Source: Patescibacteria group bacterium (GTDB lineage Bacteria; Patescibacteriota; Patescibacteriia; JBAZBY01). Taken from it: 64,000 nt of DNA. The first letter of the stretch is position 1. Each line of letters begins with the position of its first letter. The notes under the pieces were generated by a model, which ran no database searches, was not told the origin of the DNA, and was given only the letters and a program-made list of their open reading frames with translations. Positions 2,597-59,470 of this stretch are shown here, piece after piece. The translations under genes were made by a program, and so were the position numbers. Location: contig JBAZBY010000001.1 of the NCBI GenBank assembly GCA_041671225.1, positions 690,060 to 754,059 on the forward strand, in the 5' to 3' direction.

Positions 2597-3583
2597 TCAC
2601 GCGGCAGTTTTGTGCTTCATGATTCTTGCTATGTCCTGCAGCGACTCGACGCGAACAAGTTCTTTGCGCAACTGCGATGCGCCGGGAAATCCATGCACAT
2701 ACCATGCAAGGTGCTTGCGTAGTTCCAGAATGCCCCAATGCCCCTTTGCTGCCTCTGCAAGTTCTGCGTGACGCAGCGCAGTGGCGGTAATATCTTCCCA
2801 GCTTGGTTCCGTATAGGCGCCTGTTGCAAGGTAGTCTTTGATTTGCTGGAAGATCCATGGGCGGCCTTGCGCGCCGCGCGCAGGGGCAACACCATCCGCG
2901 CCGGTTGCTTCTAACATTTCTTTTGCGTGTTCTGGTGTGAGGATGCCGCCGTTGGCGATCACAATGCCATCAAAGCGTTCTTTGACCTCGCGGATCATTG
3001 CTGCATCAATCTCGCCGCTATGGCCCTGCTCAAAAGACCGTCCGTGTATCATGATGGCCGCGACCGGCACATCGGCAATAGCTGCCACTAAATCAAGCGC
3101 GGTGTACCATTCCTGAACATCAGGGGCGATTTCTGCGCGTTCTTTGCGAATTTTACTCCGCACCTTGATGGAGACAGGAATATCAATCTCATCAACAATA
3201 CGCGCAATAAGGTCGCGGGCAAACCGCGGATTGCGGAGCAGCGCAACACCCGATCCGGCATTCACGACTTTTCGCGCAGGGCAACCGAAATTAATATCAA
3301 TACCTGCAAAACCGCGTTTTTGAATTTCTCGAGCCGCCACCGCGAACATTGCGAGGTCGCGGCCAAAAATTTGGCAGATAACCGGTTGTTCGCTCGGGTC
3401 AAACATCATCTTCTCATGCGCGCGGCGCGCATCATGCCCGATTGCGTCAGACGAGATGAATTCTGTGTAGAGCACATCAGCGCCGTGCTCCTTGCAGAGC
3501 TGGCGAAACGCCGTATCGGTCACGCCTTCCATTGGGGCAAGCGCGATGATCGGTTTATGAAGTTCCTTCCAAAAATTATTCAA
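2597..3583 (-). CDS. dus: tRNA-dihydrouridine synthase (Dus family), TTG start
   Basis: 'IALAPMEGVTD', 'QIFG', 'IDINFGCP' motifs of Dus TIM-barrel flavoenzymes; 328 aa. Confidence 0.85.
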   Translation of the reverse strand: MNNFWKELHKPIIALAPMEGVTDTAFRQLCKEHGADVLYTEFISSDAIGHDARRAHEKMMFDPSEQPVICQIFGRDLAMFAVAAREIQKRGFAGIDINFGCPARKVVNAGSGVALLRNPRFARDLIARIVDEIDIPVSIKVRSKIRKERAEIAPDVQEWYTALDLVAAIADVPVAAIMIHGRSFEQGHSGEIDAAMIREVKERFDGIVIANGGILTPEHAKEMLEATGADGVAPARGAQGRPWIFQQIKDYLATGAYTEPSWEDITATALRHAELAEAAKGHWGILELRKHLAWYVHGFPGASQLRKELVRVESLQDIARIMKHKTAA

Positions 3584-3654
3584 AGATTCGTAGTAATGAA
3601 TAATGGTAAACTACGCGACCACTGTTATCTCATATTATTCCTGAAGGTGCAACT

Positions 3655-3715
3655 GCCGCACGAAGAAAAAACTCGCGGAGACGCGCGGGCTTGGTCCCGC
3701 TCAGCGGGCCGCGCG
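3655..3715 (-). terminator. nested GC-rich hairpin followed by a U-run downstream of cysS
   Basis: minus strand reads ggcgcgcggcccgctgagcgggaccaagcccgcgcgtctccgcgagtttttt, 3' of the cysS stop. Confidence 0.35.
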
Positions 3716-3790
3716 CCGAGCGAGTAGTGGTGCCGCCGACCGCTGGAGTTGGCGGACACCCGGTTTTTCTGAGTGTGGTGGTTGCACCTT

Positions 3791-5173
3791 CTATCCTCGC
3801 AGCAAGCGAGGGCCGTCTGGCGTGTCTTCGATGATGAATCCTGCTTTGCTGATTGCGTCGCGCAGCGCGTCTGACTTCGCAAAATCCTTCGCCACGCGCG
3901 CATCTTCACGCTTTTTGAGAAGCTCGTGCACCTCCTGCGGGATGACAACCGTTGGTTGTTGCGCGCGCGCCGCAAGGCCGAGACTTAAAAGCTCATCCAT
4001 AACCAGCGCGCTGTGTCGCTTTGCACTGTCCGGGTGATCAGATTTCAAAAGTTCCCAGAGCACCGCAAGCGCCTGCGGAGTGTTCAGATCATCATTCATC
4101 GCATCCTTGAAGCGCTGTTCAAATTCAGCGCAGCCTGTTTTTCCTTCGCCATTGAGCCGAGAAAACGTCGTGATCAGTTTGTGATATGCGGCTTGCGCGC
4201 CATCCATTCCCTCCCATGAGAAGGTAAGTTTTTGGCGATAATGCGCGGAGAGAACAAAGTAACGGTAGGCAAGGGGATCGTAGCCCTTCTCCTTCAGCGT
4301 TTCGAGCGTCAGGGTGTTTCCCTCAGACTTGCCCATACGACCACTGTCCACCACAAGGAATTCATTATGCATCCAAAAGCGCGCCTCTTGCGTGCCATAT
4401 GCCGCTTGCGATTGCGCGATTTCATTTGGGTGATGAAGAGAAGCATGATCTACGCCGCCCGTATGGATGTCCGCAAGGTTCCCAAGATACTTCGCCGACA
4501 TGGCCGTACATTCAAGGTGCCAGCCGGGGAATCCTTTTCCCCACGGTGAATTCCATTCCATTTGGCGCTGCTCGTTTTTTTGAGAGAATTTCCACAGTGC
4601 AAAATCGCTTGGGTGCTTTTTCTCCGGATTTTTCTCAACGCGCGCACCTTCTTCCATCCCTGCTACGTTTGCAACGCCAAGGGCAGGGTAGTCTGCAATT
4701 CGGCTCGTATCCAGATAGATACCGTCGCTCGTTTGATAGGTAAAGCCCTGTTCCTCAATACGCGTAACTAACGCGATCTGTTCTTCAATATGATCCGTTG
4801 CTTTTGCCCAGATATCCGGCGCAGCAATATGCAGGTCAGCAAGATTCTCCTTGAAGACGCCCGTAAAGTGTTCGGCGAGCTCCCAGGCATTTTTTCCTGT
4901 TTCTCGCGCGGCTTTCTCCATTTTGTCTTCACCATCATCCGCGTCACTCACAAGATGACCCACATCAGTAAGATTCATGACGTGCTGCATCTTCCATCCT
5001 TGAGCGAGCAGCGTTTTGCGCAAAAGATCAACAAAGATGTATGCGCGAAGATTCCCGATATGTGGCTCCGAATAGACCGTTGGTCCGCAAGAATACATGC
5101 GTACGGTGTTTTCGCGCATTGGTTGGAATTCCTCCTTTGCGCGATGGAGGGTATTGAAAAGCATTAACGGCAT
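3791..5173 (-). CDS. cysS: cysteine--tRNA ligase
   Basis: class I HIGH motif 'PHIGN', KMSKS-like 'GRMGKSEGN', 'YSCGPTVY' N-terminus. The ORF track extends to 5245, but alignment to CysRS N-termini ('MLFNTL..KEEF') favours the ATG at 5173 (or 5164). Confidence 0.9.
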   Translation of the reverse strand: MPLMLFNTLHRAKEEFQPMRENTVRMYSCGPTVYSEPHIGNLRAYIFVDLLRKTLLAQGWKMQHVMNLTDVGHLVSDADDGEDKMEKAARETGKNAWELAEHFTGVFKENLADLHIAAPDIWAKATDHIEEQIALVTRIEEQGFTYQTSDGIYLDTSRIADYPALGVANVAGMEEGARVEKNPEKKHPSDFALWKFSQKNEQRQMEWNSPWGKGFPGWHLECTAMSAKYLGNLADIHTGGVDHASLHHPNEIAQSQAAYGTQEARFWMHNEFLVVDSGRMGKSEGNTLTLETLKEKGYDPLAYRYFVLSAHYRQKLTFSWEGMDGAQAAYHKLITTFSRLNGEGKTGCAEFEQRFKDAMNDDLNTPQALAVLWELLKSDHPDSAKRHSALVMDELLSLGLAARAQQPTVVIPQEVHELLKKREDARVAKDFAKSDALRDAISKAGFIIEDTPDGPRLLRG

Positions 5174-15389: not shown

Positions 15390-15835
15390 AGAGCAGTATT
15401 AATAGGTAACGTGCGTAGTATATCATGTTTTGCCTTGCGTTGTGTTTCTCCGTTGTTGCTCCATCGGTGGCGTACATATAAAAAAGTGTCCGAGCCCCAC
15501 ACAGAGTGGCGGGGCCCGGACGGGGGTCAAAACGTACACGGAACAGTCTGTTCCGCGGTGTCCGGAGGATCATCCTGGCATGCAAGGACACGCCCACACC
15601 AGGACTATCCCTGTTCTTTTTCACGCGGGCTGCGGAAAACCGGGAATCGTTTCCCGCAACGCACCGAATGTTCAGGAGCAACATCCGGTCATGACGTTCT
15701 AGCACGTCTGAAAAAAAATGTCAAGAGGACGTACGGAATGACCACGCGTGTGCAATTTCATGGTCTGCTCAGCAAATGCCGAAAGGAGCAATGCTCCCTG
15801 GAGTACTGCAAACGAGATTAAAATATAGTGTCATG

Positions 15836-17065
15836 CTACCCGAACATCAACCATTCGGGCTTGAGAAGAAGTAGTATGCCGAGGAGCAAGAGAATACTGC
15901 CCCCGATGATATGTGACGCCCGCGCATACTTTCCCGTGACGCCCGCCACCTGCAAGGTCTTCATCGCGATGAAGAACACGAGCAGATCATCCAGCATGAA
16001 GATGAAAATATACAGCAACAGGTAGAGATAATACTGCCATGCGGGAAGGTGTGAAAGCGCGAGCACTTGCGTATATACCGCCGGAAGGCCGGCAGAGCAA
16101 ATAAGTTCCACAAGGTTCACGGCAGCGGCAAGAAGGATAATGCCGATAAGCGCGAGCCAGAAGCGCTGTTCCTGTGCAATGCGGCGCAGCCGGTCAAAGA
16201 TCTTGCGCCGGTTTTCCTGCCCGGTTACCTTGCACGTGGCATCGCGGTTCTGGAAGAACTCCTTGAGATAATAGATACCGCCGGCAATGGCAATGAATCC
16301 GATCGCTACCCGCACCCAGACCACGAACCCGATGAAGAGTAAAAGGTTGAGCCATGCCGCGAGGAAGAGAAAGTACACCGCTCCGGATGTCACAATGAAC
16401 GCGCCGCCAAGCGCCCAACGCCGCCGTGCGTTGGGCATACCCACCAATAAACCGATGAGGAATACCAATGTCCACATGGCGCACGGGTTAAAGCCATCCA
16501 GCGCGGCGATTCCCACAGTGAGCAATGGAAGTGAGAATGCCTTTGGATCGATGCTGCCGAAGAAAGGTACGTGCACGCGATCCGCAGACGGGTCATCTGC
16601 TGTCTCCGCTGGGACGTCCGCCTCCGGCTGCTGCGGTTCCGGATCATCCGCAATTGTCACGATCGAGGCAACGGGATCTGCACAGGGCGTCGCAATACAC
16701 TCCTGAATGCGTTGCTCGATCTCCGCGCCGGTCGTCTCATCGGTGTAATACCCGGGAATGTACTGCCCGCCAATAATGGCGACGGGAACGCCGGAAACAT
16801 CAAGCGAAAGTGCATTGCCAACAGCGGAAAGCAACGCGCGATTTTCCGCATCGTGCCACACCTCCAGCGCATGTACGCGCATAGAAGGATAACGCTCCTG
16901 GATCTGTTCAAGAAAGGATTCTTCTTTTGCGCAATGCGGGCAGCCATCCCCCCAGAAGAAATAGACATCCACGGGGTGTAAGACATCTTCCTGCGCGCGC
17001 GCAGCAAACGGAATGATACCAAGAAAGAAAGAAATGATGAGAAAAAAGATGGATAAACGCTTCAT
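15836..17065 (-). CDS. thioredoxin-fold domain fused to a CcdA/DsbD-like membrane domain (thiol:disulfide interchange)
   Basis: signal peptide; 'WGDGCPHCAKEE' CxxC; membrane domain with 'DGFNPCAMW' and a second Cys ('ELICSAG') typical of DsbD/CcdA. Confidence 0.75.
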   Translation of the reverse strand: MKRLSIFFLIISFFLGIIPFAARAQEDVLHPVDVYFFWGDGCPHCAKEESFLEQIQERYPSMRVHALEVWHDAENRALLSAVGNALSLDVSGVPVAIIGGQYIPGYYTDETTGAEIEQRIQECIATPCADPVASIVTIADDPEPQQPEADVPAETADDPSADRVHVPFFGSIDPKAFSLPLLTVGIAALDGFNPCAMWTLVFLIGLLVGMPNARRRWALGGAFIVTSGAVYFLFLAAWLNLLLFIGFVVWVRVAIGFIAIAGGIYYLKEFFQNRDATCKVTGQENRRKIFDRLRRIAQEQRFWLALIGIILLAAAVNLVELICSAGLPAVYTQVLALSHLPAWQYYLYLLLYIFIFMLDDLLVFFIAMKTLQVAGVTGKYARASHIIGGSILLLLGILLLLKPEWLMFG

Positions 17066-17256
17066 ACGGATTCAAAAAGCATGGTAAAGAGGTACCCCAT
17101 CATGATGATGCCGAAACCGACCACACCGGCAAAAACGCCTACCCGCGCTTTGAGTTGATCGTCGGTGAGATCCGGATGCTTTTTCTTCATCTCATTCCAG
17201 TATTTTTGATAGATATTCCGCTGTACATCACGAGAGCGAAAACCATCAAAGCACAA
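17062..17256 (-). pseudogene. gene fragment: duplicated internal segment of the vanX-like dipeptidase gene
   Basis: encodes 'FDGFRSRDVQRNIYQKYWNEMKKKHPDLTDDQLKARVGVFA', near-identical to residues 63-105 of the full gene at 18208-18864; it then diverges. Confidence 0.5.
17128..17250. repeat. 124-bp direct repeat, copy 1 (about 94 percent identical to 18541-18664)
   Basis: aligned by eye; about 7 mismatches. Confidence 0.8.
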
Positions 17257-17273
17257 CGCTTTGCGAATAAATA

Positions 17274-18206
17274 CTATTCAATACGACGCCACGTATCCCT
17301 GAAAAGGGTCGTGGGAGTGTTGCCATCTTCCTGCTTCCGGAATTGCCACATCCATGACTGCGAAAAAAGAAGATCATTGAGCATTCCTATGGTCGCGCGA
17401 GGATAGCGGGCAAACTTCTTCAAGAGCACGAACCAGACCTTTGGATTCCTGGGTATTTGTTGTTTCATCCTCGCCAGCCAGTATTCTGACGTCCAATGGT
17501 AATCTTTTGTCCCATCTTCACTGTGTTCCAGTATGAAATGCCCCTGTGCACACTCCTGTAGCTGTCCGCGCATCGGATACCATCCACCAAAATCCTCCAA
17601 AAGAACTCTGGCAAAATGATACTGTGTGGAGCCGCGTTGCTGCTTGTTTGCGCCTTGGATGATGACGCTGGGGTCGGGCGGCTGATTGAAATGCAAAACG
17701 GTCGTTGCCAGATATCCTCCTGGTCTGAGTATTCGTTGGAAGATCGCAAACATCGTTTTGTAGATGTTGTTCTGCTTTCCCTGCAGCGTATCCTGCACTT
17801 GGACAAAATGTTCAATAGAGCCATTGGCAATGACTCCATCGAATCGCCCAGCCCAATCTTTTGGAATGTTCTGGTAGTTCATCAGATGCACTTCAAGGCC
17901 CTTATGCTGTGCTCGCTTTACCTGCTGCGCAGAGATCGTGATCCCCACGGCATGTGCTCCGCGCTTCTGTGCTGCTGTGAGTATTCTCCCATTGCCGCAC
18001 CCAACATCAAGGATGGTACTTCCTTTTGTGCAATGGATCTGATCCAGCAGCCATTCCGCTTGATTCGCCTGTGCTTGTATGTATGGTAGATTTGGATTTC
18101 CAAAATACTTTCCGTCCGTAAAATCTTCCACACCACCGGAAAACGCAGCATCAAAAAGATCATAACATCGAATGACCGTTCGTGATGTGACTTGGGAGGA
18201 GTCCAT
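17274..18206 (-). CDS. class I SAM-dependent methyltransferase, cyclopropane-fatty-acyl-phospholipid synthase-like
   Basis: 'ILDVGCGNGRI' motif I, 'GRFDGVIANGSIEHF'; real start at the ATG at 18206 (MDSSQ); the ORF-track N-terminal extension is read-through. Confidence 0.7.
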   Translation of the reverse strand: MDSSQVTSRTVIRCYDLFDAAFSGGVEDFTDGKYFGNPNLPYIQAQANQAEWLLDQIHCTKGSTILDVGCGNGRILTAAQKRGAHAVGITISAQQVKRAQHKGLEVHLMNYQNIPKDWAGRFDGVIANGSIEHFVQVQDTLQGKQNNIYKTMFAIFQRILRPGGYLATTVLHFNQPPDPSVIIQGANKQQRGSTQYHFARVLLEDFGGWYPMRGQLQECAQGHFILEHSEDGTKDYHWTSEYWLARMKQQIPRNPKVWFVLLKKFARYPRATIGMLNDLLFSQSWMWQFRKQEDGNTPTTLFRDTWRRIE

Positions 18207-18207
18207 A

Positions 18208-18864
18208 TTATATTCTTGGCGCCTCTTTGATCTCCCCGTACATGGCATGCGGCTTGTGCAGCGTGTATGCCCACAACTGATTGCCATAGTCAAAATGCCA
18301 CCACTCATCTTTGTCCTGTCGAAATTCTGCCGCATCCATGGCTTCGCGCAAGCGCTTGCGATTCTGACGCACTGTCTCATTAATGGAATAGTTCTCGTAG
18401 TAGAATGCCGCCGCCTCCGGTCCAAAGTGATCAAACGCTGTTCCCATGGCGAGCTCATTGCCGTTTTTGTCGGCAAGTGTGAGATCCACTGCCCCTCCTG
18501 TGCTATGAGGAGGAATGCGGCTTGGCTGGTCCGGGTCTGTGGCAAAAACACCTACCCGCGCTTTGAGCTGATCGTCAGTGAGATCCGGATGCTTTCCCTT
18601 CATCTCATTCCAGTATTTTTGATAGATATTCCGCTGTACATCACGAGAACGAAAACCATCGAAGATCTTGATGCGAAAACCGGGAAGGCAGCGTTGCACC
18701 TCCATCAGCCGCTCAACAACGCCTTGGCGCAGGAACATGCGTTCATCCTGCGAAAGCTTTTGTTGAAAGTAGGAAGGCTCCAAGACAAGAACATTCTGAT
18801 CCAAGGCGACCAAAGGCTCATTCGATTCAAGAATTGGGATGGATTCAAATGCAATAAGGGTCAT
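18208..18864 (-). CDS. D-Ala-D-Ala dipeptidase (VanX/DdpX, M15D family)
   Basis: 'IFDGFRS', 'STGGAVDLTL', 'EWWHFDYG' zinc-ligand and catalytic motifs aligned to VanX. Confidence 0.8.
   Translation of the reverse strand: MTLIAFESIPILESNEPLVALDQNVLVLEPSYFQQKLSQDERMFLRQGVVERLMEVQRCLPGFRIKIFDGFRSRDVQRNIYQKYWNEMKGKHPDLTDDQLKARVGVFATDPDQPSRIPPHSTGGAVDLTLADKNGNELAMGTAFDHFGPEAAAFYYENYSINETVRQNRKRLREAMDAAEFRQDKDEWWHFDYGNQLWAYTLHKPHAMYGEIKEAPRI
18541..18664. repeat. 124-bp direct repeat, copy 2 (inside the vanX-like coding sequence)
   Basis: see copy 1. Confidence 0.8.
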
Positions 18865-19283
18865 GGATCAAGAATAGCATACAATGACCACTTTTGTAGG
18901 CGGCGTGAAAGTCCATTTTCTTTCTTTAGGTATGCCAAAAAACCCTTCCAAGCGTGTCGAGAGGGTTCCAATTTTCTGTACGTATTGTGACGGATCCGTG
19001 GCCGTGAATGTCTGAGGCCGGACGCTTCGCGCAACGCGCGTACAAAACTGATATCGGTGTGTTTTCGTTTTCTGCTGCTTCCTGCCCCCTATATCGGGGT
19101 GCATTTCATGACTTTTGTGAAGCAGGTTCGAAAATTGAGCAATACTTGACGAAAGGAGCATACAGCACATGATCGCTTCTGTCAAGAGTGTACGGAAATA
19201 CTGACTGGCTCCCCTGGGCTGATTATCTTCGAACGTGGGCGAAGGGATTGATCCTAAAGACTGGCCGCGATTTCCTCCTGAAC

Positions 19284-19877
19284 CTAGGCTGAGGGTATGG
19301 TTCCGCCCGAAGTCAACGGGGAGACGAAACTCTCAAAGTCAGGGGGTGTGAAGTCAGGGGGTGTTTGAAGAAGGATGTACAGGACTGCGTTCTCTCTTAG
19401 GAACCACAGTTCCCAGAGCTTCTCATCTGCAACTTCTGATCCCTCCTCTCCTCGACTCTCGATGAACTCGCCACTCCCCAAGGCGCTATGAATGTCGCCA
19501 CTGCTTTCGGGCTGGTTGCCCGTATGGAGAACGCGCACAGCCTCCTGGTAGTACGTCTCTGCCTTGCCTTTATCCACGAAGAGGAACGCGGACTGCGTTA
19601 GCGTGAATGCCTTCGAGTCGTTGACGAGTGCAGAAGGCTCATACTGGCTGGTCATCCCCCTCTCGGGCGCGTAGGAATCGACATACTCAGCGCTCCCTTC
19701 CTCATGGAAGAGCCCCAGGGAGGTGGGGAGGTCTGTATTCTTCATAGGAAGCTCTGCTAGCTGAGCAATGGTGATCATTGATCCACTCGGGCGATGCCCG
19801 TAGCCGGCCACCGCGAAACCCACCGCTAGCAAGAGGCAACAACTTGCAACAACAATGTGAACACGACGGACCCGCAT
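19284..19877 (-). CDS. hypothetical exported/membrane-anchored protein
   Basis: N-terminal signal anchor 'VVASCCLLLAVGFAVAG'; no known motif. Confidence 0.5.
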   Translation of the reverse strand: MRVRRVHIVVASCCLLLAVGFAVAGYGHRPSGSMITIAQLAELPMKNTDLPTSLGLFHEEGSAEYVDSYAPERGMTSQYEPSALVNDSKAFTLTQSAFLFVDKGKAETYYQEAVRVLHTGNQPESSGDIHSALGSGEFIESRGEEGSEVADEKLWELWFLRENAVLYILLQTPPDFTPPDFESFVSPLTSGGTIPSA

Positions 19878-20160
19878 ATAAATTGAGTGATTCGGGATCG
19901 CTGGGCAAGAAGCTCTTCAGTCGGAAGGACCTTCCGGAGCGCTACAACTTGTACCAGTTGATAGTCGGGTTGATCTGGTAATGCCCTCCGTTGTATGTGA
20001 TGTAATAGGAACCCGTTTGCTTCGTCTGATGATCTGAGCGAATGCAGATCACTCGTGTAAAATATTGGCGGAAAATTCCAGAAATATGGACTGGCTCGGC
20101 ATAGTGGACGCTATTGGAACTTTATTGTCCCAAACAGAATCCTTGCGTTATTTATGTGAC

Positions 20161-20901
20161 TTACCCTGACAAAGGCTGATAGTTTGATAACTTGTTCTGC
20201 CATTGGATCAATAAATCTTCCAGATCGTTTTCTAGGAATGTCGTTGGTGAAACTATTCGAAACTCCACAGTCATATTTGATGTGAGAACATATACAATCC
20301 AGTGAGTACTGTTGAAACTCGCGTCATATTCATTCACATATGGATCAGTGTCGTAATAACTCGCATTGCCAATATCTTCAAAACTGCCTTCTAATGAATC
20401 CGGATCATTGAATAAGAGTGAGGCACCAGTCACTTCTATATTGTAATATTTTGCTGCTTTTTCAGTATCTTCCAGTATTGCTATGGTCATCCCGAAAGTA
20501 AAGTCATCAGGGCCAGCATTGGCTGACATTACCTGTTGCGGAGTGTACATATAGATGTTTCCAAAAAACGAATCACCGATAGTGGCTTCTGCGACTTCAT
20601 AAAATGTGTTTTTCTTGTATGGTCCGTAGGCGGTTGGTAAATCATCTTCGGTCAGCATAATTGCTTCACCATTTCCATTGTATATTCCTGGATCACCTTC
20701 TGCGGGCGGGATGACTTTTCCTAATTCAGAAGAAGCCTCATCATTTGTATTTCCGGTTCCATTATCTTGACCTGTCGTTGAAGTGTCGGATTCCTCGCCG
20801 TTCGAAAGCATCACAATATAAATCAATGCACCAACACCAATAATAACAACCGCAAGCAAGAGTATGAGATATATTTTTGCAAGCCCTTGTTGTTTTTTCA
20901 T
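20161..20901 (-). CDS. hypothetical membrane-anchored exported protein (ATG at 20901; GTG at 20907 also possible)
   Basis: signal anchor 'IYLILLLAVVIIGVGALIYIV'; acidic, Asn/Asp/Tyr-rich; AT-rich codon usage distinct from its neighbours. Confidence 0.5.
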   Translation of the reverse strand: MKKQQGLAKIYLILLLAVVIIGVGALIYIVMLSNGEESDTSTTGQDNGTGNTNDEASSELGKVIPPAEGDPGIYNGNGEAIMLTEDDLPTAYGPYKKNTFYEVAEATIGDSFFGNIYMYTPQQVMSANAGPDDFTFGMTIAILEDTEKAAKYYNIEVTGASLLFNDPDSLEGSFEDIGNASYYDTDPYVNEYDASFNSTHWIVYVLTSNMTVEFRIVSPTTFLENDLEDLLIQWQNKLSNYQPLSG

Positions 20902-21146
20902 ATCCACTAATTACTATTTATTTCTTCAGTCTATCACAAAACCACCGCGTCAGCGATGATGCTTTGATGGCTCGGGGACAACTTGTCCGCCTCTGGCGGA
21001 GGGATTTATCGCCTCGCCCCGCGCCTAGCGGTGCTCGTTGTCCGGGGCAGCAGTGAACGCTGCGCCAGCTCGCGTTCCCTGATCGCTCGCCGTCGCCACG
21101 CCTTCGGCAAGTGGCTTGGCTCGCTTCTGCCCGGTTCGAATCCTCC

Positions 21147-21192
21147 ATAAACAAAAAAGGTTCTGCCGCCCGCAGACGGGCGCCAAAACCTT
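21147..21192. terminator. bidirectional hairpin flanked by an A-run and a T-run, immediately 3' of tRNA-Gln
   Basis: aaaaaaggttctgccgcccgcagacgggcgccaaaaccttttt. Confidence 0.4.
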
Positions 21193-21194
21193 TT

Positions 21195-21268
21195 TGGCTC
21201 GGGGACAGGGATTCGAACCCCAATTACTGGGACCAGAACCCAGCGTCCTACCATTAGACGATCCCCGA
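21195..21268 (-). tRNA. tRNA-Gln (anticodon CUG), CCA encoded
   Basis: manual cloverleaf: acceptor UCGGGGA/UCCCCGA with U1-A72 and G73 (Gln identity elements), D-stem GUCU/GGAC, anticodon stem CUGGG/CCCAG with loop UUCUGGU, T-arm GGGGUUCGAAUCCC. Confidence 0.8.
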
Positions 21269-21330
21269 ATAATGGATGAATGACAAAAGAGAGGCTACAC
21301 CATCTTCTACTATTGGTCAACCACCATTTC

Positions 21331-21358: not shown

Positions 21359-21428
21359 CCTCCTCACTGGAGTGGGGCCTACATTGAGCCCTTTGTTTCA
21401 TCTCTTGCATTGGAGAAGGAGGAGTTCC

Positions 21429-22148
21429 ATGGGAGACACTTCTACGGTCCAGAAACGGCCGATCGTCGGCAAGGAAGTGCTTGCGAGGGCGATCTGCGAG
21501 CAGTTCAAGGATGACGCGGCCCCGATGCATCTGCCCGAGGCACGCATGATGGTCGATACCGTACTCGGCGCCGTCGAGCAGCAGCTCGTTGCGGGCAACG
21601 ACATCCGGTTCATCGGGCTCGGCATCATCGAGGTGAAGGATGGCGTTCCGCAGTTCCGCCCGGCAGACGCTCTGCAGGCGGCCATCATCGCTGCTACGAA
21701 CCCGCCGCCGGCCAAGGACGGAGACGCCAAGGAGCCGGCCAAGGACGGAGACGCCGAACAGCCCGTCGGCGAGGGCACCACCGAGACCGAGGGGGACGGA
21801 GCACCCGCCACGGAGACCGAGCCAGTGACCGCCGAGTCCAACGCCGATCCTCCCGCGGAGGAGGTGGCCGGCAGTGAGGAGGACGGCACTGCCGAGCCCG
21901 CTGCCAGCGAGCCCGAGGCTGCCGGCGAAGGGGAACCGCCTACCGATCCGCCTGAGGAGGCTGCGCCCGCTGAGGAATCCGCCTCCGAGGATGGAGACGC
22001 CGAACCCGCTGCCAGCGAGCCCGTCGCCGGCGAAATCGTGGACCCGGGTAGCCAGGCGCCAGCGATTCAGGTCGGTGCCAAGGACACCCCCGTCGAGGTC
22101 GGCGAGAAGGCGCAGGCAGTCGGCGCCACCGAGGGCGCTGAGAGCTAG
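21429..22148 (+). CDS. HU/IHF-fold-like protein with a long acidic Pro/Ala/Glu-rich C-terminal tail
   Basis: strong SD GGAGAAGGAGGAG before the ATG at 21429; N-terminal about 90 aa align loosely to the HU dimerisation core ('AGNDIRFIGLGIIEVKD'); the beta-arm is not conserved; tail has repeats such as PAKDGDAKEPAKDGDAEQP. Confidence 0.5.
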   Translation: MGDTSTVQKRPIVGKEVLARAICEQFKDDAAPMHLPEARMMVDTVLGAVEQQLVAGNDIRFIGLGIIEVKDGVPQFRPADALQAAIIAATNPPPAKDGDAKEPAKDGDAEQPVGEGTTETEGDGAPATETEPVTAESNADPPAEEVAGSEEDGTAEPAASEPEAAGEGEPPTDPPEEAAPAEESASEDGDAEPAASEPVAGEIVDPGSQAPAIQVGAKDTPVEVGEKAQAVGATEGAES

Positions 22149-22422: not shown

Positions 22423-22591
22423 GAAGTTACAAAAGAGCCGTCGCAGATAATCAGCGCCGTCGCAAAAAAAGAAAACGTTCGCTCGTTACATTACACAGGG
22501 GATAAAACACTGGAGTTTTTCTTTGTTACACGTGCGCCGTCGCGAGGCGAGCGCCGTCGCAAAAAAAGTGGATAACCTCCTTGTTCGTGAC

Positions 22592-22665
22592 CTGGCCAGC
22601 ATTGCGTTTCCGTTCTTAACCATTTTCCGCCACCAAAATGGGTCTCTCGGAATCACACTGGCCAG
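22592..22665. repeat. 74-nt element bounded by palindromic CTGGCCAG octamers with an internal hairpin CCATTTT-ccgccacc-AAAATGG, copy a
   Basis: about 50-nt core near-identical to the copy at 23821-23896. Confidence 0.7.
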
Positions 22666-22887
22666 ATCAGGGATGAGGAAGTGCCTCGTCTCGATTGCTC
22701 CAATGTGGAGCAAAGGCGGCACGCACCTTAACAAGCGTGAATAAAGGCTAGACGATACCGTTCAATCCACATAATTGATGCGCGGTTTGGACTCGCGCAT
22801 CCTTCTGGTTCCACATGTTCCGGCAAACTGTACTCCCGTACAGCAAGAGGAGGACGGACCACTTGCAGTAAAACAAAGGAGCATCAC

Positions 22888-23292
22888 ATGCTAACATCCC
22901 CAGCTCCTATCGTTCTCGCAATTCCTGACATACAGCCCGAAGTCCGTTCCACGATCGTCGAACACATCGCGCGGGAAGAGCATGTCAATAAGGAGCGCGC
23001 AGGACGCATCTTCGATGCGCTTCTGCATGTCTTCGCCTTGGCGATGTGCTTCCAGCACAAAGTGTTTCCGCTTGCGCCGAGCATCGGAAGAGCGGAAACG
23101 ACGTTCCAGCAGTTCCCCGTTGCATACCAGGCGTATTGCAGAGCGCTTGGACCAAAGCCGGTGAGGGTGAGAACTGGTTCCTATGAGACCAGCGAGCCCA
23201 GCCCGTTCTTTGGTCCCGAGTACACGATCCAGTTCATGATCGCCAACGGCATCGTTTTCGACGAGGACGTCTGGCGTGAGAAAAAGGAGTAG
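22888..23292 (+). CDS. hypothetical protein, paralog 1 of a tandem pair (134 aa)
   Basis: SD AAGGAG; shares 'R.GR.FDAL.H..A.A..F' and 'F..A..EY..C..LG' blocks with the next gene; no known family. Confidence 0.6.
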   Translation: MLTSPAPIVLAIPDIQPEVRSTIVEHIAREEHVNKERAGRIFDALLHVFALAMCFQHKVFPLAPSIGRAETTFQQFPVAYQAYCRALGPKPVRVRTGSYETSEPSPFFGPEYTIQFMIANGIVFDEDVWREKKE

Positions 23293-23298
23293 AGCGCC

Positions 23299-23724
23299 AT
23301 GCAGACGCCACTTTCGCTGAAACCCCCAGTGGCCATCACTGTCCCGGCGGTGGCCTGGCCCTTCCGTGACGAGCTCATCGACGTGTTCGCAACCCAGGAG
23401 CGCATCTCCCGTTCTCGTTCTACCCGTGTCATCGACGCACTCTTCCACTTCCTTGCTGTGGCCGCGACGTTCCGGGGGCGAAACCTCAGACCCGCGGATG
23501 AGATCTCCGCAGCGTGGATGCTCTTCGTCGCATATACAAAGGAGTACACCGAGTTCTGCGACGAGCTCGGCGGCTACATCCACTTCCGGCCCGCTACCAG
23601 TCCCCGTACCATCGCAACCACCACGCCGGCGGATGCGATCAACCTCATGGAGAAGTTCGAGATCCCGTTCAACAAGATGGTGTGGATGCCGGAGTGCGTA
23701 TCTCCGGAGACGGTCAAGTCCTGA
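23299..23724 (+). CDS. hypothetical protein, paralog 2 of the tandem pair (141 aa)
   Basis: SD AAAAAGGAG; paralogous to 22888-23292. Confidence 0.6.
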   Translation: MQTPLSLKPPVAITVPAVAWPFRDELIDVFATQERISRSRSTRVIDALFHFLAVAATFRGRNLRPADEISAAWMLFVAYTKEYTEFCDELGGYIHFRPATSPRTIATTTPADAINLMEKFEIPFNKMVWMPECVSPETVKS

Positions 23725-23820
23725 TTCACGCAGATAGAGAACAGTAGAGGCTTCGGCCTTTATTGACATAATGGGGAGTGGTGGCGCTGGTGGCTGCTAC
23801 TCCCCGACCTTTTTCGCGAT

Positions 23821-23896
23821 CTGGTCAGCGCATTGTTTCCGTTCTTAACCATTTTCCGCCACCAAAATGGGTCTCTCGGAAGCAGTTCCTGGCCAG
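23821..23896. repeat. 74-nt CTGGYCAG-bounded element, copy b
   Basis: see copy a. Confidence 0.7.
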
Positions 23897-24048
23897 GTCG
23901 GGGGAAAGGAACAGTAACGTTACCCCGATGCCTATTTTCTTTTTTGGGGGCATTATTTTCACCGCATGTTTTATGTTCATCTTCAGCAAGAGACGACGCA
24001 TGAAAAAGCCGAATTCACAATATACGATTTTCATCTGGTGATTTCTTG

Positions 24049-24160: not shown

Positions 24161-24820
24161 ATGTACCGCATACGAAACACGTGGAGTGTTGCGACGTGTT
24201 GGGTCGCGATCCTCTGCATGCTTACCATCCCGTTGCTCTCCGGGTGCTCAGAGGACCACGCGCAGGTCATTGCTCCGCCGCAGGAGCAGACCGCGCCCTC
24301 GGTGCCGGATCAGTACGCACAGTATGAGGCCCAGGGAACGCTGATCCAGCAGTGGATCGATCGCATGGACCCGTACGTCACGCAGAACGCCGACGGCACG
24401 TTCGTCTGCGACTGGCAGGCGTTTCAGCAGGATCTCGCGCGCACCAATCCCCAGATTGCGCTGGCTCTCAACGGCGCCGCCACTCCGGGCAAGGACGCCA
24501 AGGTGATCGTGGAACTGCGCGACGGAATTCCCATCGCCAACAAGGCGCTCAAGGAGCAGCCCGAGGGCATGACGCAGACCGCGTCCACGCGTTGCTACTG
24601 GCGCTGGTGGGGTCGCACCTGCTGCTACACCGGCTGGGATGCTGAAGTTGCCGTATGGACCAATGCCGCCGCGGCTGTCGTGGCGGGCATCGCCGGAGGT
24701 CCGATCGGCGCGGGGGTGGTCGCCTACATCGCGTGGGTAGCTGAACGTCTCACCGATCAGTGTGGTGGGTTCTGCATCAACGCAACGTGGGTTGGCGGCT
24801 TCTGGCTTACCTGTCCGTAG
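24161..24820 (+). CDS. lipoprotein with a Cys/Trp/Gly-rich hydrophobic C-terminal region
   Basis: lipobox 'LLSGC'; C-terminus 'CYWRWWGRTCCYTGW...AAAAVVAGIAGGPIGAGVVAYIAWVA...DQCGGFCINATWVGGFWLTCP', reminiscent of Gly-rich bacteriocin-like peptides. Confidence 0.6.
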   Translation: MYRIRNTWSVATCWVAILCMLTIPLLSGCSEDHAQVIAPPQEQTAPSVPDQYAQYEAQGTLIQQWIDRMDPYVTQNADGTFVCDWQAFQQDLARTNPQIALALNGAATPGKDAKVIVELRDGIPIANKALKEQPEGMTQTASTRCYWRWWGRTCCYTGWDAEVAVWTNAAAAVVAGIAGGPIGAGVVAYIAWVAERLTDQCGGFCINATWVGGFWLTCP

Positions 24821-38440: not shown

Positions 38441-39142
38441 ATGAGTTATATTATTAGAAAAGTAAAATCAGTTTTTAAAACTATTTATTTCACTTTTTTT
38501 TATAAAGAATTATTTAAAGATTACCGCTTTACTATTAGTAAAGCTTCGACTGAAGTAGAACGAAGGGAGTTGTATCGATTAAGATACCAGGTGTACTGCG
38601 AGGAATATGGTTATATTGATAGGAATAACTGTCCAGACGGATTAGAAAAAGATGTTTATGATGAGCATTCAGATTACTTTATTATTCGTGATAGTAAAAA
38701 TAATATTGCTGCAACGGTAAGAATTATTAAGAATTCTCAAGCAGGATTTCCTCTTGAGAAAAATTTTCACCTAAATATTGAAACATCAAATCTTGATCAT
38801 GATCATTTAGTCGAGATTTCAAGACTTATAGTTGCTAGAAAGTATCGAAAAAAATTATTGCTATTGTTTCTAGTGAAGGGTTTATATTTGTATGCGATAG
38901 AACAAAAGATAACTCATGCATATTTTATAATCGATGAAAAACTCTATCCTCTTCTCTTGAAGATTAAAGTACCTGTAATAAAAATTGGAACACCGGCAAT
39001 CTATCAGGGTTTAACATTTCCATGTCTTGTTGATGTTACTGAATGGGAACGTAATGTTAGAAGAAGTAGAAGTTTTAATAGGTTTTATTATTTTGGCGGT
39101 ATGGATTTAAGCGATGACGGAAATAAGTATGAAGTTCATTAA
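38441..39142 (+). CDS. GNAT-fold N-acyltransferase of the FeeM / N-acyl amino acid synthase type
   Basis: 'RRELYRLRYQVYCEEYGYID....DGLEKDVYDEHSDYFIIRD', 'VEISRLIVARKYR' match the conserved blocks of the exosortase-associated N-acyl amino acid synthase family; very AT-rich. Confidence 0.65.
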   Translation: MSYIIRKVKSVFKTIYFTFFYKELFKDYRFTISKASTEVERRELYRLRYQVYCEEYGYIDRNNCPDGLEKDVYDEHSDYFIIRDSKNNIAATVRIIKNSQAGFPLEKNFHLNIETSNLDHDHLVEISRLIVARKYRKKLLLLFLVKGLYLYAIEQKITHAYFIIDEKLYPLLLKIKVPVIKIGTPAIYQGLTFPCLVDVTEWERNVRRSRSFNRFYYFGGMDLSDDGNKYEVH

Positions 39143-39159
39143 GATTTACGAGGGATACC

Positions 39160-40194
39160 GTGCAAGGCATTCAAGATAATTTGGGCGAGTATTTTAATTT
39201 TACGCCAGGTGTTTTTCTATATATATATATACTAACATTTATTCCATCATGGATCGCACTGATATTATCACTTCGTTATCTTAAGAGACGCAACATTCAC
39301 GCTAGTCTCTTTTGGCTCATTATCCTTTTTGGTTTATTGGCCTTGCCGTATCTGTATGTATTAGTTGGGAGCGTAGGTCTTCCTTGGCAATTTTTGAGCG
39401 CGATTATTCTCATTCCGACATACAGCTTCTCAAAAATTTTAATGAACAGAAAAACATATTCTGATACCTTCGGGGGTTCATTTTTTTGGACTTTATATGC
39501 AAAAGTGTATGATTTGTTGCTTCTTTTCAGTCCCTATAAACAACTTGTATCTCAGCTTTTAGAAGAAATAAGAGTAACTAAGCCAGCTGGGAATATTATT
39601 GATATTGGTTGCGGTACAGGAAATCTTGCGGTGTCACTTTCTGCGAATACAAACTATACTATTTTAGGAATAGATAATTCTATTGGAATGCTTACGCGTG
39701 CACAAAAAAAACATTATGATAAACAAAGGGTGCTTTTTCAAAAAGTTGATCTAGAGAATGAAAATTTTATATCTGAGATAGATGGAAAATTTGATATTGC
39801 TATTATTAGTAATGTGCTTTATACACTTGGGTCACCAATTATGGTTCTTAAGCAAATCAAAGCATTATTAAACAATGATGGCTTCTTAATTATCTCAGAA
39901 CCTAAGCAGGGTTCTAGTTTATATGCTTTATTCAAAGAGCACTATAGACAATTGTTTAGTCATTTTAGTATTAATAATCTAATCATATCTGTTAGGGATT
40001 TTTTTATTTTATTAGTTGTTGGTGTATTTAATTTTGCAATTTCTTTTAGAGCACGGGGTAGGGGGTCATATTCTTTTTTTTTACCGCACAATCTTACTCA
40101 ACTAGTTCAGGAATCTGGATTCAGTATTGAAAAAATTGGTGCGTCTTATGCAAACCAAAATATCTTACTTAAAGCAAAAAAAATACTAACATGA
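39160..40194 (+). CDS. membrane-anchored class I SAM-dependent methyltransferase
   Basis: 2-3 N-terminal TM helices, motif I 'IIDIGCGTGNLAV', 'DIAIISNVLY'; stop overlaps the histidine kinase start (ATGA). Confidence 0.7.
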   Translation: MQGIQDNLGEYFNFTPGVFLYIYILTFIPSWIALILSLRYLKRRNIHASLFWLIILFGLLALPYLYVLVGSVGLPWQFLSAIILIPTYSFSKILMNRKTYSDTFGGSFFWTLYAKVYDLLLLFSPYKQLVSQLLEEIRVTKPAGNIIDIGCGTGNLAVSLSANTNYTILGIDNSIGMLTRAQKKHYDKQRVLFQKVDLENENFISEIDGKFDIAIISNVLYTLGSPIMVLKQIKALLNNDGFLIISEPKQGSSLYALFKEHYRQLFSHFSINNLIISVRDFFILLVVGVFNFAISFRARGRGSYSFFLPHNLTQLVQESGFSIEKIGASYANQNILLKAKKILT

Positions 40195-58860: not shown

Positions 58861-59470
58861 GACGCAACTTCACAAGATGGTCGCTCCGTCTTCGCCCCCT
58901 GCTTCGCAAAGGGCTGCGACGGACAAGCCCCGTAAGCACAAAAGGGCCTGTCCGCCGTAGCTCTGAACGGAGTGAGGAGCGAAGGCGGAGAGGAAAGTCC
59001 GAACACCCCACGTGGTGCTCGCGGCACTCTAAAAATGGGAGTGCGACGAGCGTCACGTGGAAGTGGATACCACCGAAATGGTGGCAGGAGTGATCCTAGG
59101 GAAAGTGCCACAGAGACAATACCGCTCCGTCTTCGCCCCCTGCTTCGCAAAGGGCTACGACGGACAAGCCCCTGTTATTGCATCGTGCAATAGGCCTGTC
59201 CGCCGTAGCTCTGAACGGAGTGAGGAGCGAAGGCGGAGTAAGGGTGAAAAGAGTGGGGTAAGAGCCCACAGGCAGGTCTGGTAACAGATCAGCGTGGCAA
59301 ACCCTATCCGGTGCAAGATCGAATAGGCTCGCGTGCTTCATTTTGTGAGGTGCGCCGAGCGGGTAGATTGCTGGATCGCGTTGGTGACAACGCGGCAAGA
59401 GAGATGATCATCACCTGCAAACCGTGAGGAATGTAGGGACAGAATTCGGCTTATCGTGAAGTTGCGTCCC
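58861..59470 (+). ncRNA. rnpB: RNase P RNA (bacterial type A core) with two large inserted hairpins
   Basis: P1 pairing 58861-58873 (gacgcaacttcac) with 59456-59468 (gtgaagttgcgtc); P4 'GGAAAGTCCGAACAC' at 58992-59006; J11/12-P12 'TAAGGGTGAAAAGAGTGGGGTAAGAGCCCAC' at 59239-59269; P13-like 'GGTCTGGTAACAG'; 3' P4 'ACAGAATTCGGCTTAT' at 59439-59454. Confidence 0.85.

Follow-up and report, generated by a model that had tools for sequence, protein, structure and literature searches.

In the 64,000-nucleotide stretch of Patescibacteria group bacterium DNA analysed here (contig JBAZBY010000001.1, positions 690,060 to 754,059 of the forward strand, hereafter the window), an internal segment of a vanX-like dipeptidase gene occurs a second time, in direct orientation, between a methyltransferase gene and a gene for a thioredoxin-fold membrane protein ('Dsb-like'), where it is fused in frame to the last codons of an otherwise missing ArsP_1-family permease gene. 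This repeat is probably the scar of an illegitimate, microhomology-mediated rearrangement, in which an ArsR-thioredoxin-ArsP module was deleted and a partial vanX duplicate was left behind at the joint. The resulting small open reading frame (ORF) is a chimera of two gene fragments, the operon from which one of them came survives intact in a relative, and the two parents meet within a microhomology of 8 nt. The elements concerned are the following.

18541-18664, minus strand: copy R, the source, inside the intact vanX-like gene, covering codons 68-108 and the third base of codon 67
17128-17251, minus strand: copy R', the partial vanX duplicate, identical to R at 117 of 124 positions
17252-17273, minus strand: spacer of 22 nt from the methyltransferase stop to R', the 5' junction of the duplicate lying at 17251/17252
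17128-17135, minus strand: microhomology TTTTTGCC, 8 nt, at the 3' junction (three-way alignment)
17065-17127, minus strand: the last 21 codons of an ArsP_1-family permease gene, a relic in ancestral position and frame (tblastn)
17062-17256, minus strand: chimeric ORF with a vanX-derived N-terminal part and an ArsP-derived hydrophobic tail, 64 codons from a TTG at 17256

The repeat is present in the reads

A repeat search followed by MAFFT alignment returned a single direct repeat of 124 nt, the longest in the window, whose copies are 94% identical and start 1413 nt apart. Their identity stops abruptly at both ends, no gapped extension being found when the extended regions were aligned, and because the longest identical run between them measures 51 nt, a chance match is excluded. 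The initial annotation had described the repeat correctly in its identity of about 94%, although the low-coordinate copy ends at 17251 and not at 17250; it had also rightly placed the other copy inside an intact vanX-like gene, with the correction that this copy covers codons 67/68 to 108 and not residues 63 to 105. All genes of the locus lie on the minus strand, in the transcriptional order vanX-like, methyltransferase, R', Dsb-like and EamA, so that the copy formerly called upstream, on the strength of its low coordinates, is downstream in transcription. Nor is the methyltransferase gene (18206-17274) alone between the copies, as had been stated, since codons 109-218 of vanX (its 3' half), a 1-nt spacer and the 22 nt that precede R' lie in the interval too. 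A small hairpin (17263-17247) spans the 5' junction of R', and 63 nt separate the end of R' from the Dsb-like gene.

Could the arrangement have been created by an assembler that joined strain variants? The source is a metagenome-assembled genome with a contig of 1.03 Mb, and a difference of 6%, such as separates the two copies, might also be seen between strain variants. However, a MEGAHIT k141 contig in ENA is 100% identical to the window across 13.8 kb and has the same arrangement, and because its k of 141 exceeds the 124-nt repeat, this independent contig argues against an artefact. Among the Logan unitigs of run SRR6484324, moreover, one corresponds to window positions 18627-17206 and another begins at 17214; these ends are exactly the k=31 break points predicted from the 51-nt identical core, given the 31-mers that contain a copy-specific base, and hence the paths from R through the methyltransferase gene to R' and from R' to the Dsb-like gene are both in the reads. 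Finally, R' is flanked by unique sequence, one side of which is homologous to a relative's ArsP gene. The arrangement is therefore not an assembly artefact, the likelihood of a false join being negligible.

An intact operon in a relative reveals what was lost

The decisive comparison was provided by L092, a Logan contig of 8188 nt from run SRR22388171, which was found through P0361, the other member of the cluster that the Dsb-like protein forms at 90% identity. Three features of the window anchor the two sequences to each other, in addition to the permease relic listed above.

15836-17065, minus strand: Dsb-like protein, a thioredoxin fold (CPHC) with a polytopic membrane part, 409 aa, with an orthologue in L092 at 92% (aa) and 88% (nt) identity
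14412-15389, minus strand: EamA/DMT transporter, syntenic with L092 (76% nt, 83% aa), marking the conserved downstream backbone
19206-19240, minus strand: 35-nt island, 97% identical to L092 positions 905-939, the left anchor, where homology ends exactly after ...GAGCCA

Upstream of the Dsb-like orthologue, L092 carries genes for an HTH_5/ArsR protein (93 aa), a Thioredoxin_3 protein (90 aa) and an ArsP_1 permease (322 aa) with a full PF03773 domain (240.6 bits), and the permease stop overlaps the Dsb-like start by 4 nt (ATGA), as the preceding ORF does in the window; EamA follows downstream. By blastn, L092 positions 3154-4453 align to window positions 17135-15836 at 88% identity, and the EamA genes at 76%. 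The replaced segment can be delimited by the 35-nt island (window 19240-19206) on the left and the permease tail on the right, and between these anchors the window holds 2.07 kb (vanX, methyltransferase and R'), against 2.2 kb in L092, which are occupied by a Phage_30_3-like gene on the other strand followed by ArsR, Trx3 and ArsP. No relic of vanX or of the methyltransferase gene was found in L092. The ArsR-Trx3-ArsP module also adjoins the Dsb-like gene in other candidate-phyla genomes (L016, L018 and L028; ArsP in L012 too), and because the association recurs in several genomes, the module can be taken as ancestral and the window as derived. As judged from these sequences, the demonstrable change in the window relative to L092 is the loss of ArsR-Trx-ArsP.

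The loss was not complete. Residues 297-322 of the L092 permease match window positions 17142-17065 in frame (tblastn, 81% identity, E 4e-8), the reciprocal search with the tail of the window ORF against the L092 permease gives an E value of 2e-12, and the two C-terminal sequences read ...FAGVVGFGIIMMGYLFTMLFESV in the window ORF and ...FAAVVGLGIIMMGYLFTMLFESV in the L092 permease. A full PF03773 domain is absent from the window, where only the last 21 to 26 or so permease residues remain. The chimeric ORF consists of 41 vanX codons (68-108) and the last 21 codons of the permease, and its stop overlaps the Dsb-like start (17065) by 4 nt, again as ATGA; the gene caller starts it at the ATG at 17190, which leaves 42 codons. 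The 64-codon frame (17256-17062) and its 4-nt overlap with the Dsb-like start had been seen before, but what had been taken for a plain vanX fragment is a vanX::ArsP chimera, and apparently no conserved small gene either. An annotation as a 'hypothetical protein' of 42 to 64 aa would accordingly be better replaced by a label that names both fragments.

How closely the parents fit together is apparent from the three-way alignment of the joint, in which the vanX gene reads ...GGTGTTTTTGCC|ACAGACC, the L092 ArsP gene ...GCCATTTTTGCC|GCAGTGGTCGG and the window ...GGCGTTTTTGCC|GGTGTGGTCGG. Nucleotide homology to L092 starts at 17135 and overlaps the end of R' at 17128 by exactly the 8 nt of TTTTTGCC, which is common to R in vanX, to the L092 ArsP gene and to the window junction. 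Identity to vanX ends and identity to ArsP begins on opposite sides of this sequence, precisely as in a microhomology joint. Both genes read TTTTTGCC as Phe-Ala, which keeps the fusion in frame. That the repeat is a footprint of recombination, as originally suspected, is borne out by this joint to the permease remnant.

How the scar may have arisen

In the ancestor, the Dsb-like gene would have been the last in an operon of ArsR, Thioredoxin_3, ArsP_1 permease and Dsb-like genes, coupled to the permease gene by the ATGA overlap. The rearrangement would then have removed the ArsR and thioredoxin genes and all of the permease gene except its last 21 codons, and the deletion joint would have kept a second, 124-nt copy of the internal vanX segment, fused to the permease remnant within TTTTTGCC. 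We infer the order and number of the events, for which two routes can be envisaged. In the first, a unit of 1413 nt, comprising vanX codons 68-218, the methyltransferase gene and the following 22 nt, would have been duplicated in tandem, after which a microhomology-mediated deletion would have begun within the second vanX piece and ended at the TTTTTGCC of the permease gene. In the second, a single template switch during replication would have inserted a 124-nt patch copied from the nearby vanX gene while the operon was skipped. As expected for a tandem duplication, R' is in direct orientation and begins where the 1413-nt unit ends, 22 nt past the methyltransferase stop; because this direct copy follows right after the unit end and is cut at a microhomology, the anatomy fits both routes. 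A duplication-mediated rearrangement, which had been mentioned earlier only as an alternative, hence comes close to the best model.

Similar joints are known from experimental systems. In Escherichia coli, microhomologies of 3-12 bp were found at the joints of deletions and tandem duplications that capture promoters (PMC6614815). The window shares with these events a joint within a short direct microhomology (8 nt here), the involvement of deletion or duplication, and the placement of a downstream gene behind another promoter; it differs in that the event is natural and fixed, that it created an in-frame chimera of unrelated genes, and that promoter capture is deduced. Salmonella likewise commonly undergoes spontaneous rearrangements whose end points carry short direct repeats (PMC3411829). 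There, tandem duplication with imprecise collapse offers a parallel to a direct second copy that abuts the end of a putative unit (1413 nt) and is cut by a direct-repeat deletion, although here 124 nt of the second copy are left, and the full duplication intermediate and the ancestral neighbourhood were not observed. The route by template switching would resemble microhomology-mediated break-induced replication or fork stalling and template switching (MMBIR/FoSTeS), in which a deletion joint contains a short stretch copied from a nearby template, 1.4 kb away in this case, and the switch occurs at a microhomology; in the window, microhomology can be looked for at only one of the two switch points. 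Such template switching has been described mainly in eukaryotes. Given the 6% divergence between R and R', the event would either be old or have used a different allele as template.

What the differences between the copies imply

The seven differences between R and R' are all transitions, of which five are synonymous third-position changes and two are adjacent and convert GGA to AAA (G90K). The Nei-Gojobori estimates are 0.23 synonymous (dS) and 0.021 nonsynonymous (dN) substitutions per site, with a dN/dS of about 0.09; by the same method, the window and L092 differ in the Dsb-like gene by a dS of 0.51 and a dN of 0.044 and in the permease tail by a dS of 0.35 and a dN of 0.042. Residue 90 is variable among homologues (G, K, M, I, S, Q, T and E), and the direction of G90K can therefore not be polarised.

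Several observations limit the model of an in situ rearrangement just described, or weigh against it. Had R' been born identical to R and then drifted neutrally, differences would be expected across all codon positions, yet five are synonymous and the other two share a codon; the dS between the copies is nearly half that between the window and L092, with a dN of only 0.02. A simulation in which R is under purifying selection and R' is neutral gives P = 0.04-0.08 for the observed synonymous bias. The pattern is explained slightly better if R' came from a functional allele that had diverged, or if the chimeric ORF is under selection. At the 5' junction (17251/17252), furthermore, vanX is the sole identified parent, so that microhomology is readable at the 3' junction only; the regions downstream of methyltransferase homologues could not be aligned with the 22-nt spacer. 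Because no vanX relative closer than 64% (aa) was found in the databases searched, an arrangement with vanX and the methyltransferase gene ahead of an intact ArsR operon is not demonstrable. The left end of the replaced segment (19206), finally, coincides with the end of a GAGCCA that resembles an attachment site (att) near tRNA-Gln, and this left anchor leaves room for an earlier acquisition of vanX and the methyltransferase gene. A harsher null model, in which all changes fall on the neutral copy, gave a probability of 0.004-0.016 for at most one altered codon; it was rejected as the wrong null, being unfair because vanX itself accepts synonymous changes only. Either an old scar was in part protected against amino-acid replacements, or a diverged functional allele gave rise to R', and seven differences are too few data to choose.

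The second of these possibilities can be cast as allelic, homology-facilitated illegitimate recombination, in which R' would be the recipient's old vanX allele and R the allele of a donor. A microhomology-mediated deletion would first have fused codons 1-108 of the recipient's vanX gene to the permease tail; vanX-methyltransferase DNA from a related strain would then have entered, with a homologous anchor in or upstream of the 5' part of vanX, and would have been joined illegitimately just ahead of the recipient's R'. Recombination of this type during natural transformation has been described for Acinetobacter and Streptococcus pneumoniae, and it would give one homologous anchor combined with one illegitimate joint and can leave a fragment of the recipient allele beside incoming DNA. 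A fragment left in this manner would explain why the differences are biased to synonymous sites and resemble those between two functional genes; the locus, moreover, lies in a region whose gene content varies between close relatives and which has att-like repeats near tRNA-Gln, and L092 lacks vanX and the methyltransferase gene at this locus. Nevertheless, as many illegitimate joints are needed as in the in situ model, with a transfer in addition, no evidence of a donor allele or of competence was seen, no second allele or strain variant was found in the collections searched (the 90% clusters being singletons and the metagenome scan empty), the composition of both genes is native-like, and the statistical signal is marginal. 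We therefore regard this scenario as unlikely.

The dipeptidase and methyltransferase genes look like an established pair

The initial annotation had proposed that the event brought in the methyltransferase, and this would mean that the gene, alone or together with the 3' half of vanX, entered in or next to vanX through a recombinational or mobile-element-like insertion that duplicated a 124-nt target. The genes in question, with a putative promoter, are these.

18208-18864, minus strand: vanX-like M15 D-Ala-D-Ala dipeptidase, 218 aa, apparently intact (PF01427, 76.1 bits, cut-off 27)
17274-18206, minus strand: class I S-adenosylmethionine (SAM)-dependent methyltransferase of the CMAS superfamily, 310 aa (PF02353, 75.9 bits, cut-off 27)
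19157-19185, minus strand: promoter-like TTGACA-17-TATGCT upstream of vanX, a candidate only, matching the consensus at 10 of 12 positions

When the vanX-like protein is aligned with its homologues, the zinc-binding and catalytic positions H120, D127, E187 and H190 prove invariant or nearly so, while its scores against the NCBIfam equivalogs stay below the cut-offs (PRK10178, 72 bits versus 176; dipept_VanX, 43.7 versus 320). By sequence, it is therefore a member of the M15 family, a placement from which functional equivalence to DdpX or VanX does not follow. The methyltransferase is likewise under every NCBIfam equivalog cut-off, that for cyclopropane fatty acid (CFA) synthases included (NF008686, 58.8 bits versus 400, profile positions 150-336 of 383), and its nearest solved structures are CFA synthases, matched in the SAM-binding core only (E 2.5e-10); with the N-terminal part of these enzymes missing, the predicted protein is not a full-length CFA synthase.

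An insertion would agree with the occurrence of methyltransferase homologues (80%, 66% and 65% aa) in unrelated neighbourhoods elsewhere, which indicates that the gene moves on evolutionary time scales, and with the lack of a methyltransferase gene beside the other vanX genes examined, neither the two closest homologues nor those at 80 metagenome and 2 viral loci having one. As nothing is syntenic at the distance of these homologues, however, differing contexts carry little weight. More importantly, R' is joined to the permease remnant and not to sequence that flanks vanX, and consequently R and R' do not bracket an insertion into a once-continuous target; the 3' half of vanX also lies within the interval. 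The methyltransferase gene starts 1 nt past the vanX stop, and the GC content of the two genes, overall and at third codon positions (GC3), is 0.50/0.55 for vanX and 0.49/0.52 for the methyltransferase gene, against a window mean of 0.50/0.52. A foreign origin of both genes, considered on grounds of composition, was rejected on these values, and no phage family matching vanX was found. With their 1-nt spacing and window-mean composition, vanX and the methyltransferase gene look like an established pair.

The direct repeats flank a gene, as do the target-site duplications of transposons or insertion sequences (IS), but there the likeness ends. Known target-site duplications are far shorter than 124 nt, with 2-14 nt as the range set against it here; terminal inverted repeats and transposase are absent, no transposase, integrase or inverted repeats having been found around the repeat and no integrase within 15800-21300, and R' is joined to the remnant of an unrelated gene. 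Without inverted repeats and transposase, a target duplication of 124 nt agrees with no insertion mechanism. A tRNA origin of the repeat does not apply, both copies being derived from vanX, and the duplicate of the tRNA-Gln 3' end at 20968-20980 does not bound it. The scar is thus neither a transposon target duplication nor an att repeat, and insertion of the methyltransferase gene into vanX is highly improbable. The claim that the event delivered this gene is likewise unsupported, given that the L092 locus lacks both vanX and the methyltransferase gene and given the spacing and composition of the pair.

Searches for relatives added little to this picture. No vanX or methyltransferase gene was present within 6 kb of the Dsb-like gene at 80 GTDB loci, no methyltransferase or Dsb-like gene lay near the vanX homologues at 80 metagenome and 2 viral loci, and the neighbourhoods of the methyltransferase homologues and of the vanX homologues (64% and 63%) were all unrelated to the window. 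In 90%-identity clusters, the neighbouring proteins were singletons, except for the Dsb-like protein, which led to L092 and for which no Pfam or NCBIfam family scored above its cut-off. The locus comparison suggested earlier was hence applicable only in part, no relative having this methyltransferase beside vanX and nothing being syntenic at the available distances; synteny with distant relatives, tried as a test for insertion, was discarded for the same reason, what recurs beside the Dsb-like gene being ArsR-Trx3-ArsP instead. One metagenome (JGI sample 3300028028) contains both the nearest methyltransferase homologue (80% aa) and a vanX homologue of 57%, on different contigs (L004 and L096). 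At that distance, the methyltransferase is much closer to the window copy than any other gene compared, which could reflect transfer of this gene among Patescibacteria, although no housekeeping genes are shared with the window by which the distance might be calibrated.

Is the chimeric ORF a gene?

Whatever the origin of the repeat, the chimeric ORF may have been co-opted and come under purifying selection, either as a 42-aa single-pass membrane peptide (MKKKHPDLTDDQLKARVGVFAGVVGFGIIMMGYLFTMLFESV) or as a translated leader for the Dsb-like start. The fusion is in frame and free of stops, the probability of no stop under 6-7 random transitions being only about 0.75, but an in-frame joint arises by chance once in three times and is favoured by a microhomology that encodes the same dipeptide in both parents. 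The differences are biased to synonymous sites, and the only amino-acid change, from G to K by two adjacent transitions, creates MKKK just after the ATG chosen by the gene caller; against this stand the mere seven differences and their P of 0.04-0.08. The ATGA overlap has been kept, and the 47 nt before the Dsb-like start contain a single difference from L092, compared with 12% divergence within the gene, although conservation is expected for a translation-initiation region anyway. No homologues of the chimera were found in the databases searched. Taken together, these points make a function for the chimeric ORF quite doubtful. If true, fragments of two genes would have given rise, in a reduced genome of the candidate phyla, to a new and datable small gene, whose product would have a positively charged N-terminus and one transmembrane helix.

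Throughout the window, a Shine-Dalgarno-like motif lies within 25 nt of the start at only about 8 of 41 listed start sites, and because most genes lack one, its absence at the small ORF is uninformative with respect to translation. TATACT- or TATGCT-like boxes occur 7-15 nt before the ATG of several genes, vanX included. The combination of boxes close to start codons with few Shine-Dalgarno motifs suggests that mRNAs in this organism are leaderless or have short leaders.

A variable region near tRNA-Gln and other features of the window

The locus lies about 2 kb downstream of a tRNA-Gln gene (21195-21268), the 13-nt 3' end of which (TGTCCCCGAGCCA, 21195-21207, minus strand) is duplicated at 20968-20980, 227 nt downstream of the tRNA gene. 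Between them, the spacer holds TGGAGGATTCGAACC, which resembles the reverse complement of another tRNA 3' end, for which neither ARAGORN nor Rfam made a call, and the ENA contig ends inside this spacer, at window position 21107. The duplicated 3' end and its spacer suggest an integration hot spot with decayed remnants. The 20968-20980 repeat is followed by the motif TCAAAGCATCATCGCTGACGCGGTGGTTTTGTG, which occurs twice in L092, where it flanks a different gene: in the window, a 26-nt island (20935-20960, minus strand; 92% identical to L092) is single and lies upstream of two hypothetical genes (20907-19284), and in L092 the second motif (3-28 and 934-971) forms a direct repeat around a DUF3147-like gene. 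Both this island and the 35-nt island are near-identical to L092 despite non-homologous flanking genes. The 35-nt island has no Rfam match at E<=1, and an exact 22-mer of it is absent from JGI metagenome contigs. It ends in GAGCCA, but a derivation by copying from the 3' end of tRNA-Gln was rejected. L092 carries no tRNA. Gene content between the islands varies between the relatives, and the sequences give the impression of a variable region close to a tRNA gene and furnished with att-like repeats, in which vanX and the methyltransferase gene may have arrived earlier as a unit.

Elsewhere in the window, there are two copies (58882-58995 and 59123-59243, plus strand) of a structured element about 110 nt long, with a 50-nt core of 98% identity. 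One copy is an insertion of about 94 nt at the tip of P12 in an RNase P RNA (Rfam match 59009-59462), and the other lies directly 5' of GAGGAAAGTCC (at about 58990-59005), which resembles the conserved P4 strand that the Rfam alignment does not place; the RNase P gene may thus start further upstream and carry the element twice. It was rejected as an analogous scar, a structured insert that is present twice being no deletion scar. Another direct repeat (22579-22690 and 23808-23920, plus strand; a 77-nt core at 87% identity that can be lengthened to about 110 nt) flanks two plus-strand ORFs of about 135-141 aa (22888-23292 and 23299-23724), which lie in tandem and are apparently paralogous; the repeat could represent either a 5' region present twice or a further scar of rearrangement. 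Two ORFs, at 21372-22148 and 24161-24820, have a GC content of 0.64-0.68 and a GC3 of about 0.78-0.80 in a window of 50% GC, and two adjacent ORFs at 38441-40194, with a GC content of 0.30-0.33 and a GC3 of 0.21-0.25, may be foreign DNA.

Possible consequences for the Dsb-like gene

Under the proposed deletion with a vanX patch at its joint, the Dsb-like gene would have lost its ArsR-linked promoter and would now be co-transcribed behind vanX and the methyltransferase gene, in what would amount to promoter capture. The candidate promoter at 19185-19157 would serve vanX, the methyltransferase gene, the chimeric ORF and the Dsb-like gene alike; in the interval from the methyltransferase gene to the Dsb-like gene, no promoter-like site, no convincing terminator and only a weak hairpin were found. 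By ending on the ATGA, the chimeric ORF may at the same time preserve termination-reinitiation at the Dsb-like start.

The repeat by itself gives no ground for treating the methyltransferase gene as a recent mobile insertion. The event is well resolved yet ordinary and calls for no new mechanism, and its wider interest turns on a possible function of the chimeric ORF. What the locus offers is operon remodelling that can be read at base resolution in the reduced genome of an uncultivated member of the Patescibacteria, in which a conserved ArsR-thioredoxin-permease module was lost and its last gene would have been rewired behind an unrelated gene pair.

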